A stretch of 64,000 bases of DNA from Escherichia coli (GTDB taxonomy: Bacteria > Pseudomonadota > Gammaproteobacteria > Enterobacterales > Enterobacteriaceae): the NCBI RefSeq assembly GCF_030013205.1, contig NZ_CP122648.1. One strand, given 5' to 3'. Position 1 is the first letter of the stretch. Each line of letters starts with the position of its first letter. A program made the translations under genes and the position numbers. This document shows positions 35,802-37,269 of the stretch, in pieces. A model generated the notes under the pieces. It made no database searches. It had not been told where the DNA came from and saw only the letters and a program-made list of their open reading frames with translations.

Positions 35802-36707
35802 TTACATCTCCTGCGGTACGACCGATTTCGCCAGCAACCATTCACGAAATTGCTGCAAGTGCGGCGAGTCAGACTTCTCTTCCTGCCACGTCATAATAAA
35901 ACGATTACCGGTACGAATAGGCACATCACAGGGAATCACCATATCGCCACTATCCAAATCATGTTGAATAGCGAACCGTGGTAACAGCGCCACGCCGAGA
36001 TTAGAGCGCACGGCGGCAATCAGCATTGAAAGCAAATCGAAACGTGGTCCGTTATTGACCAGCGGACTGCTAACGCCAGATAAAGCAAACCACTCTTCCC
36101 AGCCAGTAATACGGGTGCTTTGATGCAGAAGTGGTAACTCAGTAAGCAGTTCTGCCACTGACAGTTTTTGATCGGACATTGCAAGCAAACTGCCGCTGCA
36201 TACCGGCAAAATCTCCTCATCAAAGAGATATTCTACTTCCGCCCAGGGCGCGCAAAAATTTTCGCGCATAATGACAGCATCGTACTCCCGATTAAGAAAA
36301 TCGCCGTTATTAGCTAAAGAATGAATATTAACAATAATATCGGGATGTAACTTTGTGAATTCATGTAAATTTGGGATTAACCAGTGGGTACTAAAAGTAG
36401 GATTAACGGCAAGTTCAATAACCTGAACCGTAGGCTGCCAGGTCATAATGGTATTGGTATCGCGTTCCAGCTTATTTAATGTTTCTTTTACTATCCCCAG
36501 GTAATACTTCCCTGCATCATTAAGAAAAATACGTTTTTTAGAGTGTGAAAATAACGGAGTATGTAAAAATTCCTCCAGCGCACTCACTTGTCTGAATACA
36601 GCACTTTGGGTTAACGCTAACTCCTCTGCCGCTCTGGTATAACTTTCATGACGTGCGACGACCTCAAAAGTCACCAGCAGCTCCGTTTTAGGTATTTTTC
36701 CTCGCAT
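35802..36707 (-). CDS. LysR-family transcriptional regulator
   Basis: 301-aa ORF with N-terminal HTH (…SYTRAAEELALTQSAVFRQVSALEE…) and LysR substrate-binding domain. Confidence 0.85.
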   Translation of the reverse strand: MRGKIPKTELLVTFEVVARHESYTRAAEELALTQSAVFRQVSALEEFLHTPLFSHSKKRIFLNDAGKYYLGIVKETLNKLERDTNTIMTWQPTVQVIELAVNPTFSTHWLIPNLHEFTKLHPDIIVNIHSLANNGDFLNREYDAVIMRENFCAPWAEVEYLFDEEILPVCSGSLLAMSDQKLSVAELLTELPLLHQSTRITGWEEWFALSGVSSPLVNNGPRFDLLSMLIAAVRSNLGVALLPRFAIQHDLDSGDMVIPCDVPIRTGNRFIMTWQEEKSDSPHLQQFREWLLAKSVVPQEM

Positions 36708-37269
36708 AATGCCGTCCCTTAAAAATAGTTTAAACCATCAAAAATACATTACTTATTACGAAGTAATGGTAACCAAAGCAGCAATAAATAATTTATAAGA
36801 ATCATGATTGACATTTATAACCCAGTAAGCCTAGCGTGACAAATATCTTAATCAGATAATAATAATCCGAAAAGCACAGCGCCTTTCGAATTATCCGGAA
36901 TCACATTAAGTGAAAATTATTAAATTGATATCATTTATCATATCTGTGGATATTATGATAAACAATCAACAAAGATTTTATTTTTGATTTATAGCATATC
37001 CCTCTAAGAATTTTTGCGATGCTGCAATATCCGGGTAAAGACCCGATCCTGGCTGACAAATGGCACGACTTGACGATAAGCGGTGAACATCGCTTTTGTT
37101 GATTTACTTAACGCTACGGTCAAACGCTGGGAAGCCAGTGCATCAGGTAACGATTCGAAATTCGCCGTCGTTCTTATTCGTGGCTTGCGGTCGGTTGCGG
37201 CAATCCACAGTGGCTGTGGTCATGCAGTCAAGCCAGCGGTCAGATTTCGACCGTGGTTAACATTTAAGG

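Follow-up and report, generated by a model that had tools for sequence, protein, structure and literature searches.

GcvA and DsdC, two LysR-type transcriptional regulators (LTTRs) of Escherichia coli, are amino-acid-sensing activators of catabolic operons. A gene for a protein of the same clade (hereafter the LTTR) stands at the distal end of the glutamate mutase (methylaspartate) operon in the 64,000-nucleotide stretch of E. coli contig NZ_CP122648.1 (assembly GCF_030013205.1) analyzed here (the window). Kronen and Berg (2015, PLoS One 10:e0145098, PMC4682846) described the enterobacterial glutamate fermentation cluster, found FumD to be a highly active mesaconase, left open the fate of the pathway product citramalate, and in their Figure 5 labelled the gene as a putative 'LTTR'. 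Therefore the idea that this gene regulates the operon, to which a sequence-only reading of the window also came, was already in the literature as an annotation. That description consisted of the label only, without operator, analysis of arrangement or ancestry, or regulator experiment, and searches by locus tag (ECs0755-0764, Z0884-0897) and for methylaspartate ammonia-lyase together with LysR found no further literature on the regulator.

New in this work are i) comparative support for the pairing of regulator and operon, ii) a specific candidate operator, iii) an evolutionary account of the layout, and iv) the assignment, by sequence match, of the region upstream of the gene to a hut/rtcB scar; otherwise the LTTR is an ordinary pathway-specific LysR regulator. 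We consider it fairly probable that the LTTR is the pathway-specific regulator of the enterobacterial methylaspartate island, binding a conserved 19-bp box (box 1) in the glmS leader and activating the operon on inducer. Two lines of sequence evidence point to this: the linkage persists across rearranged layouts, and the conserved LTTR-type box recurs beside the LTTR in other genera. The claim of the sequence-only reading, i.e., that the gene regulates the glutamate mutase operon via its leader, is thus supported in part. The island with its LysR region is found in 975 of 5426 complete E. coli genomes (~18%, O157:H7 Sakai included) and in many Citrobacter, Salmonella, Klebsiella, Enterobacter and Yersinia; the putative regulator and its candidate operator offer a direct experimental handle for switching the pathway on and asking what its role is in the gut.

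The regulator and its linkage to the glutamate mutase genes

As the sequence-only reading had stated, the LysR gene lies on the opposite strand and converges with the adenosyltransferase gene cobO, which the open reading frame (ORF) and Pfam domains bear out (Table 1). Its 301-residue product carries an N-terminal HTH_1 domain (PF00126; residues 9-67, E = 7.3e-18, 64.7 bits against a cutoff of 26.6) and a C-terminal LysR_substrate domain (PF03466; residues 96-293, E = 4.1e-28, 98.6 bits against a cutoff of 28), and thus has the winged helix-turn-helix, the periplasmic-binding-protein-like effector domain and the length (~300 residues) of a LysR-type protein. RefSeq annotates it at the identical locus of strain K_EC180 as 'LysR substrate-binding domain-containing protein', also opposite in strand to the operon. 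The protein belongs to the GcvA/DsdC/AmpR clade: the best NCBIfam match was GcvA (NF008352, 221.8 bits, under the cutoff of 288), the best PDB match was GcvA as well (8y6u, E = 9e-43), and identity with GcvA-annotated proteins was ~40-45%. The DsdC models gave 147.2 bits against a cutoff of 316 (NF007491) and 109.4 bits against 352.4 (TIGR02036). Since the scores are below both family cutoffs, the LTTR is neither GcvA nor DsdC.

The gene is under strong purifying selection (ratio of nonsynonymous to synonymous substitution rates, dN/dS, 0.04-0.08), and the 301-residue ORF is intact in both Sakai and the window strain. The 90%-identity protein cluster whose representative is a 301-residue E. 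coli protein, 99% identical to the LTTR, holds 1620 member sequences. A truncated form of 189 residues (99% identical over 62% of the length) represents a further cluster, of 180 member sequences annotated as E. coli; judging by this form, the regulator may have been lost in some lineages.

Orthologues were scanned with one genome per GTDB species. Those with 80-93% identity were found in Citrobacter, Salmonella arizonae and diarizonae, Klebsiella oxytoca and grimontii, Enterobacter, Lelliottia, Pluralibacter, Buttiauxella and other Escherichia, and in all 32 species-representative loci with downstream sequence the LTTR adjoined the glm cluster, converging with either cobO or fumD. In particular, cobO and the symporter gene (gltP) are absent from E. 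whittamii and Escherichia sp. E1V33, where the LTTR converges with fumD. Around this constant pairing the loci vary: glsA is present in some of the 32 and absent from others, and the neighbours upstream of the LTTR differ, being a divergent sumT plus a PocR-domain AraC-family regulator in Citrobacter, a PocR-like gene alone in Salmonella diarizonae, and hut genes in some E. coli.

More distant orthologues kept the association in other arrangements. In Yersinia enterocolitica (63% identity) the LTTR is divergent from sumT-kinase-glmS-glmL-glmE-mal-atuA-DUF4387-symporter (SDF), followed by fumD-cobO; in Yokenella regensburgei (57%) the genes diverging from it are a btu-like transporter set and then glmSLE-mal-atuA; and in GCA_902840985.1 (55%) only a 279-bp spacer separates it from glmS...cobO, from which it diverges directly. 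The Trabulsiella orthologue (68%) follows cobT in a region ridden with insertion sequences, and a Leeia homologue (44%) has no glm or related genes nearby. In all, orthologues of 55-93% identity were kept with glm, mal, fumD or cobO genes in at least four architectures, and the LTTR is the sole regulator gene common to the E. coli, Yersinia, Yokenella and other clusters compared. The recognition-helix region LTQSAVFRQ is kept in the cluster-linked orthologues, while FR is replaced by CK in unlinked homologues.

Because the Yersinia, Yokenella and GCA_902840985.1 orthologues are divergent, the convergent E. coli layout derives from a divergent ancestor. The sequence-only reading had regarded the LTTR as other than the usual divergent partner of its target: this describes E. 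coli, where the gene is convergent and ~12 kb from glmS, but not those three orthologues, which are classically divergent from the glm operon.

A second regulator gene accompanies the LTTR in part of these genera. A PocR-domain AraC-family gene flanks it in Citrobacter and Salmonella diarizonae, often with sumT (L013 7923-8828, L011 8758-9645, L046 20603-21446; L numbers denote fetched loci), and the AraC-family neighbour in Klebsiella (L044 20676-21368) matched HTH_18 and HTH_AraC only. Neither the window nor any other E. coli locus examined has such a PocR-like gene, and Yersinia, Yokenella and locus L050 lack it too. It is possible that it serves as a second regulator of the B12-dependent cluster outside E. 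coli.

A candidate operator in the glmS leader

The glmS leaders of seven taxa (E. coli, E. whittamii, Klebsiella, Salmonella diarizonae, Buttiauxella, Yersinia and Yokenella) were aligned, and boxes were extracted from eight. The sequence-only reading had taken the entire 24402-24948 leader as the site of action; conservation narrows this to ~60 bp (24815-24875) and a second block (24670-24692), while most of the 547-bp leader is unconserved. The second block is one we take to resemble a CRP site (TnAGA-N6-TCACA) with one good half (TCACA).

Box 1, which contains a T-N11-A dyad in LTTR format, was the best-conserved leader segment (E. coli, E. whittamii, Escherichia sp. E1V33, Klebsiella, Salmonella diarizonae, Buttiauxella, Yersinia and Yokenella) and lay upstream of glmS in nine of nine taxa examined. 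The boxes stand 90-130 nt upstream of the glmS start codon, with the centre of box 1 ~125 nt from the ATG in the close genera. In the window box 1 occurs once, both as the exact dyad and as an 18-mer with up to three mismatches, and a regular expression covering the known box sites had no other match in 914 kb of fetched loci.

Outside the leader, the box recurs at L042 9842-9860, L041 11040-11058 and L050 9861-9840. The spacer between the Yokenella LTTR and its divergent neighbour holds a near-copy of the leader box with 10 identical flanking bases (GTTGTCTTCAttTTTTtTCAATTGC versus GTTGTCTTCAaaTTTTaTCAATTGC in the leader); Yersinia has a 15/19 match to the E. coli box ~130 nt upstream of fumD; and the LTTR-glmS divergent spacer of L050 has a 17/22 match which, as in E. 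coli, is ~130 nt from the glmS ATG.

Neither a riboswitch (cobalamin included) nor any other RNA element was detected when both strands of 21000-39000 were scanned with Rfam (E <= 1), so protein-mediated control remains. If GACACT (24855-24860) served as the -10 element of the leader promoter, the dyad centre would be at ~-43, and at ~-56 if TATTAA did so. Consensus promoter scans of the two AT-rich regions gave counts at or below shuffle expectation, and the promoters named here are therefore hand-read candidates. A copy of box 1 through which the E. coli LTTR could control its own gene was sought in front of that gene, and no convincing one was found: the exact dyad and the 18-mer (up to three mismatches) were confined to the leader, and position weight matrix (PWM) scores near the LTTR were at background. 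Autoregulation is thus unsupported in E. coli.

Table 1. Positions of the regulator gene, the candidate operator and neighbouring features in the window
Feature	Position	Strand	Basis or remark
Conserved promoter-operator module of the glmS leader	24815-24875	+	leader alignment
Box 1, TTGAAAATAGATCAATTGC, 19 bp	24817-24835	+	TTGA-N7-TCAA (24817-24831), T-N11-A dyad, LTTR format
Box 2, AAAGACACTCC	24851-24861	+	~17 nt after box 1
TATTAA element	24868-24873	+	
Second conserved leader block, AAATTAGAAGTTGATCACAATTA	24670-24692	+	kept in E. coli, E. whittamii, Klebsiella, Salmonella, Buttiauxella
Presumed target operon, glmS-glmL-glmE-mal-atuA-DUF4387-SDF symporter-fumD-cobO	24949-35768	+	RefSeq annotation of identical locus (K_EC180), Pfam
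cobO	35166-35768	+	Pfam CobA_CobO_BtuR, E 5e-64
GC-rich hairpin (11 bp) between convergent cobO and LTTR, candidate bidirectional terminator	35772-35798	both	terminator scan, folds
LTTR gene (ECs_0755 of O157:H7 Sakai)	35802-36707	-	301-residue ORF, Pfam, Sakai annotation
Predicted 5' untranslated region of LTTR mRNA	36708-36813	-	read from sequence; predicted transcription start
Shine-Dalgarno AAGGGA	36720-36715	-	read from sequence, within the predicted 5' untranslated region
Palindrome with 8-bp arms, CATTACTT-N6-AAGTAATG	36768-36747	-	within the predicted 5' untranslated region
Candidate sigma-70 promoter of LTTR: TTGTCA (36842-36837), 17 nt, TATAAA (36819-36814)	36814-36842	-	hand-read, inference
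Hairpin with 15-bp stem, 3' of lyase relic, just before LTTR promoter candidate	36861-36895	-	fold
HAL-family (hutH-like) ammonia-lyase relics: frameshifted 3' end (36978-37114), internal piece (37110-37170)	36978-37170	-	blastn to L040 26593-26730 and 26189-26249
rtcB-family relics, two fragments including 3' end	37174-37274	+	blastn to L040 17039-17095 and 16822-16863, inside annotated RtcB coding sequence
SdhX small RNA (3' untranslated region of sucD) with terminator (37296-37279)	37271-37371	-	100% identical to annotated K-12 sdhX
Two hypothetical genes between cydA and the leader	22954-23898, 23979-24401		low G+C (~36-40%)
IS1 inside the DUF4387 gene	31007-31774	+	DDE_Tnp_IS1, E 1e-74; L040 alignment interrupted at 31006/31775

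The region upstream of the regulator gene and the island

The AT-rich, non-coding stretch that the sequence-only reading placed upstream of the LysR gene proved real in composition (G+C 0.283 at 36700-36999 versus ~0.50-0.55 in the flanking genes) and lacks any ORF longer than 42 residues in 36708-37080. One correction of coordinates is called for: the true spacer, between the hutH relic and the LTTR, is 36708-36977 only (270 nt), and the right end of the segment covered by that reading (37080) falls inside a pseudogene fragment. Similarly, of the gene's 'own' upstream region, what stands is this 270-nt spacer with a plausible promoter, while the remainder consists of hut/rtcB deletion scars and carries no copy of the leader box. 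The glmS leader and the LTTR upstream region are both 27-35% G+C, which upstream of the LTTR is real but unremarkable, such values being common in E. coli intergenic and horizontally acquired DNA.

The scar can be read against E. coli genomes that keep the complete arrangement. In 144 of 5426 complete genomes (hut+ genomes, e.g., strain 1428; L040 16822-26730 region) the same site holds rtcB and, directly upstream of the LTTR and in the same orientation, hutU-permease-hutD-hutI-hutG and a HAL-family lyase gene; no GntR/HutC gene was found in the hut+ E. coli island. The last 18 residues of the lyase relic in the window (PDIAASQKFLEGYAINQK*) are identical to the strain 1428 lyase, whose intact gene matches Pfam Lyase_aromatic. 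By these matches the stretch upstream of the LTTR is a deletion scar of a hut operon plus rtcB. A remnant of mngR in the GC-normal part (37020-37270) was considered and rejected, because K-12 homology ends at the SdhX terminator and the stretch matches the hutH-like gene and rtcB of hut+ E. coli. The hairpin beyond the lyase relic (36861-36895; -19 kcal/mol, z -4.0, equalled by 0 of 200 shuffles) is kept in strain 1428 and is probably the terminator of the former hut operon.

Within the spacer, the LTTR promoter candidate was unlisted by the consensus scanner because its -10 element is without the final T. A structured RNA in the LTTR 5' untranslated region was rejected, as the fold of the whole region was no better than shuffles (z -0.8). 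Downstream of the gene, the hairpin in the 33-nt gap to cobO folds on both strands (-26.7 and -25.1 kcal/mol; z -7.0 and -5.9). Strain 1428 and the window share 99% identity over the LTTR coding region (synonymous divergence, dS, 0.036), with a fall to 82-92% exactly at the start codon; compared with E. whittamii the coding dS is 0.86, and the spacer is nevertheless 87.5% identical (36708-37114, compared with L040 and L005). This pattern suggests a break by recombination, constraint on the spacer, or both.

The island spans 14.5 kb between cydA and sucD, in place of mngR, mngA and mngB of K-12. The window is reversed relative to K-12, with cydA (20580-22151, minus strand), the island, SdhX, sucD (37372-38241, minus strand) and sucC in this order. 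On the sucD side, homology with K-12 stops at the T-run of the SdhX terminator (~37268), which is the exact island boundary; on the other side it stops within the region upstream of cydA. At the identical K_EC180 locus RefSeq gives two hypothetical genes, then glmS through cobO, with mal as methylaspartate ammonia-lyase, atuA as an AtuA-family gene, the symporter as one for dicarboxylates/amino acids and fumD as a class I fumarase, then the LTTR on the other strand. The two hypothetical proteins had no Pfam, NCBIfam or PADLOC match; their genes are present in the E. coli loci examined and absent from Klebsiella and Salmonella, where the cydA-glmS gap is 1.2 kb of non-coding DNA.

IS1 interrupts the operon of the window strain, and 8 bases of L040 (31926-31933) align on both of its sides, as expected of a target-site duplication. 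The junction was found in one of the 5426 complete genomes (swine ETEC4079, NZ_CP122643.1), in which the LysR region is also a 100% match; the insertion is likely polar on the symporter gene, fumD and cobO. Elsewhere, glmE of the Salmonella arizonae type strain (L034 17733-19175) has an in-frame stop at codon 24 (LQT*HTG), so that its cluster may be a pseudogene or the stop an assembly error. Four identical copies of TTGATTAAAAGTCAA, met in the dyad search at 12386-13027, probably lie in the lysT-valT-lysW tRNA cluster (a cluster that Sakai has at the corresponding position) and are unrelated to the LTTR.

Proposed model, alternatives and known regulators

In the proposed model, the LTTR would bind box 1, probably together with box 2, and a small-molecule inducer on the LTTR would lead to activation of glmS through cobO. 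Because E. coli contains so much glutamate, the more plausible inducer would be an intermediate of the pathway, L-threo-3-methylaspartate or mesaconate, rather than glutamate itself. Expressed from its own candidate promoter (TTGTCA-17-TATAAA, 36842-36814), the LTTR would act in trans over ~12 kb, its place beyond the last operon gene, facing it, having presumably arisen by rearrangement of the ancestral divergent layout. Four parts of the model are inferred: contact of the LTTR with the box, an activating and not a repressing role, the effector, and where the promoters lie. More tentatively, the LTTR may be the switch still missing for a cryptic module of glutamate degradation that ~18% of E. 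coli carry, O157:H7 among them, and that in hut+ strains would lead from histidine through glutamate to mesaconate/citramalate; the LTTR would act at TTGA-N7-TCAATTGC, with methylaspartate, mesaconate or some signal particular to the gut as the cue. If so, overexpression of the LTTR, or its effector, would reveal the conditions of expression, the physiological role and the fate of citramalate.

Several observations weigh against regulation of the island by the LTTR through box 1: i) the L049 orthologue (61% identity) follows a cob operon, converges with a peptidase gene and cobO-fumD-symporter, and has no glmSLE or mal within 10 kb; ii) the close orthologues probably all belong to one horizontally spreading island, so that their synteny amounts to few independent observations and the more distant orthologues are more informative; iii) in the only published induction attempt (Kronen and Berg 2015, PMC4682846), no tested condition gave expression of the cluster in O157:H7; iv) only the right half of the box (AWCAATTGC) is invariant, also in Yersinia, Yokenella and L050, where the left half is poorly conserved; v) the specificity of the PWM and the regular expression is overstated, because they were partly built after the extra sites had been seen; vi) the E. 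coli LTTR has no convincing box in front of it, and matches to the 9-mer core were only weakly enriched in LTTR upstream regions (26 versus 17.5 +/- 4.5 in shuffles; 12 of 300 shuffles as high); and vii) IS1 splits the operon in the window strain, so the distal symporter gene, fumD and cobO may escape leader control.

Other readings of the locus account for part of this evidence. B12 genes often adjoin the LTTR (sumT is divergent in Citrobacter and Yersinia, a btuCD/F/B-like operon is divergent in Yokenella, cobT or a cob operon is the immediate upstream neighbour in L048 and L049, and cobO is the convergent neighbour in E. coli), as would fit a regulator whose chief targets are the genes of cobalamin supply (sumT, btu-like uptake, cobO, cob operon), which perhaps senses a corrinoid and is linked to glutamate mutase via the cofactor only. 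We regard this as quite unlikely, since no B12 gene is divergent from the LTTR in E. coli, box 1 stands directly before glmS in all nine taxa even with B12 genes further upstream, and the B12 genes of Yersinia and Yokenella, lying upstream of glmSLE-mal in the same direction, form one unit with it; moreover, the GcvA/DsdC clade senses small amino acids, not corrinoids. The leader box might also be the site of another factor (CRP/FNR family, IHF, or a PocR-like AraC-family protein in other genera), with the LTTR acting elsewhere or only modulating. TTGA...TCAA resembles FNR/CRP half-sites and ATCAA-N4 resembles the IHF core, going by consensus sequences; the pathway is anaerobic; GACACT as -10 would put the dyad centre near -43, the position of a class II activator; and the LTTR of Citrobacter, Salmonella and Klebsiella has the PocR-domain AraC regulator beside it. 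We nevertheless judge this unlikely. FNR and CRP were rejected on spacing, as the N7 between the half-sites, rather than N6, is one base longer than in the consensus of FNR (TTGAT-N4-ATCAA) or CRP; IHF was rejected as the invariant TTGC falls on unspecified positions of its consensus, and sigma-54 for want of a GG at -24. E. coli, Yersinia, Yokenella and L050 all have the box but no PocR-like gene, and it is in LTTR-divergent spacers that the box recurs.

The hut genes, which in hut+ genomes stand directly upstream of the LTTR with no hutC, raise the question of whether control of this adjacent operon was once the task of the Escherichia LTTR, or still is one of its tasks, so that in the hut-less window strain the LTTR would be partly orphaned. 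Joint control of hut and glm would be metabolically sensible because hut yields glutamate, the substrate of the glm pathway, and the rtcB-hutU spacer gave PWM scores of 10.9 (L040 18434-18455, first matrix) and 10.3 (18510-18531, refined matrix). Those scores, however, are within the background range; other genera are without hut near the LTTR, E. whittamii and E1V33 have none in the ~950-bp sucD-LTTR gap, and the glm link is kept in all of them; and purifying selection on the LTTR persists in the hut-less lineages too. A hut regulator is thus very unlikely. A cryptic state, in which the LTTR and cluster are silent in E. coli (e.g., by H-NS silencing of the AT-rich leader) and the regulator is without a working role, would agree with the lack of methylaspartase activity in O157:H7 under all conditions of Kronen and Berg, with the low G+C of the leader and LTTR upstream region, with the truncated LTTR variants and with IS1 in the operon. 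It is highly improbable given the selection on the LTTR, the intact ORF in Sakai and the window strain, the size of the cluster of the 301-residue form, the conservation of the pathway enzymes across genera (90-97%) and the high mesaconase activity of FumD.

Pathway-specific regulation by the LTTR can be set beside the known systems. GcvA and DsdC of E. coli have the same two-domain architecture and length, whereas gene context, putative operator and presumably effector of the LTTR differ. PocR, the Salmonella pdu/cob regulator of the AraC family, belongs to another protein family than the LTTR; its paralogue with a PocR domain flanks the LTTR in Citrobacter, Salmonella diarizonae and Klebsiella, scores 271.6 bits where the cutoff of the PocR equivalog is 500, and could co-regulate. 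The classical divergent catabolic LTTRs BenM/CatM, CbnR and DsdC use two sites, one for recognition (T-N11-A) near -65 and one for activation near -35. Like them, the Yersinia, Yokenella and L050 orthologues are divergent, and the candidate operator contains a T-N11-A dyad with a second box ~17 nt downstream. Unlike the usual LTTR autoregulation from a shared site, no operator copy was found at the E. coli LTTR's own promoter; and unlike BenM/CatM, CbnR and DsdC, the LTTR of E. coli, Citrobacter, Salmonella and Klebsiella lies ~12 kb from its presumed operator and converges with the last gene of the operon.

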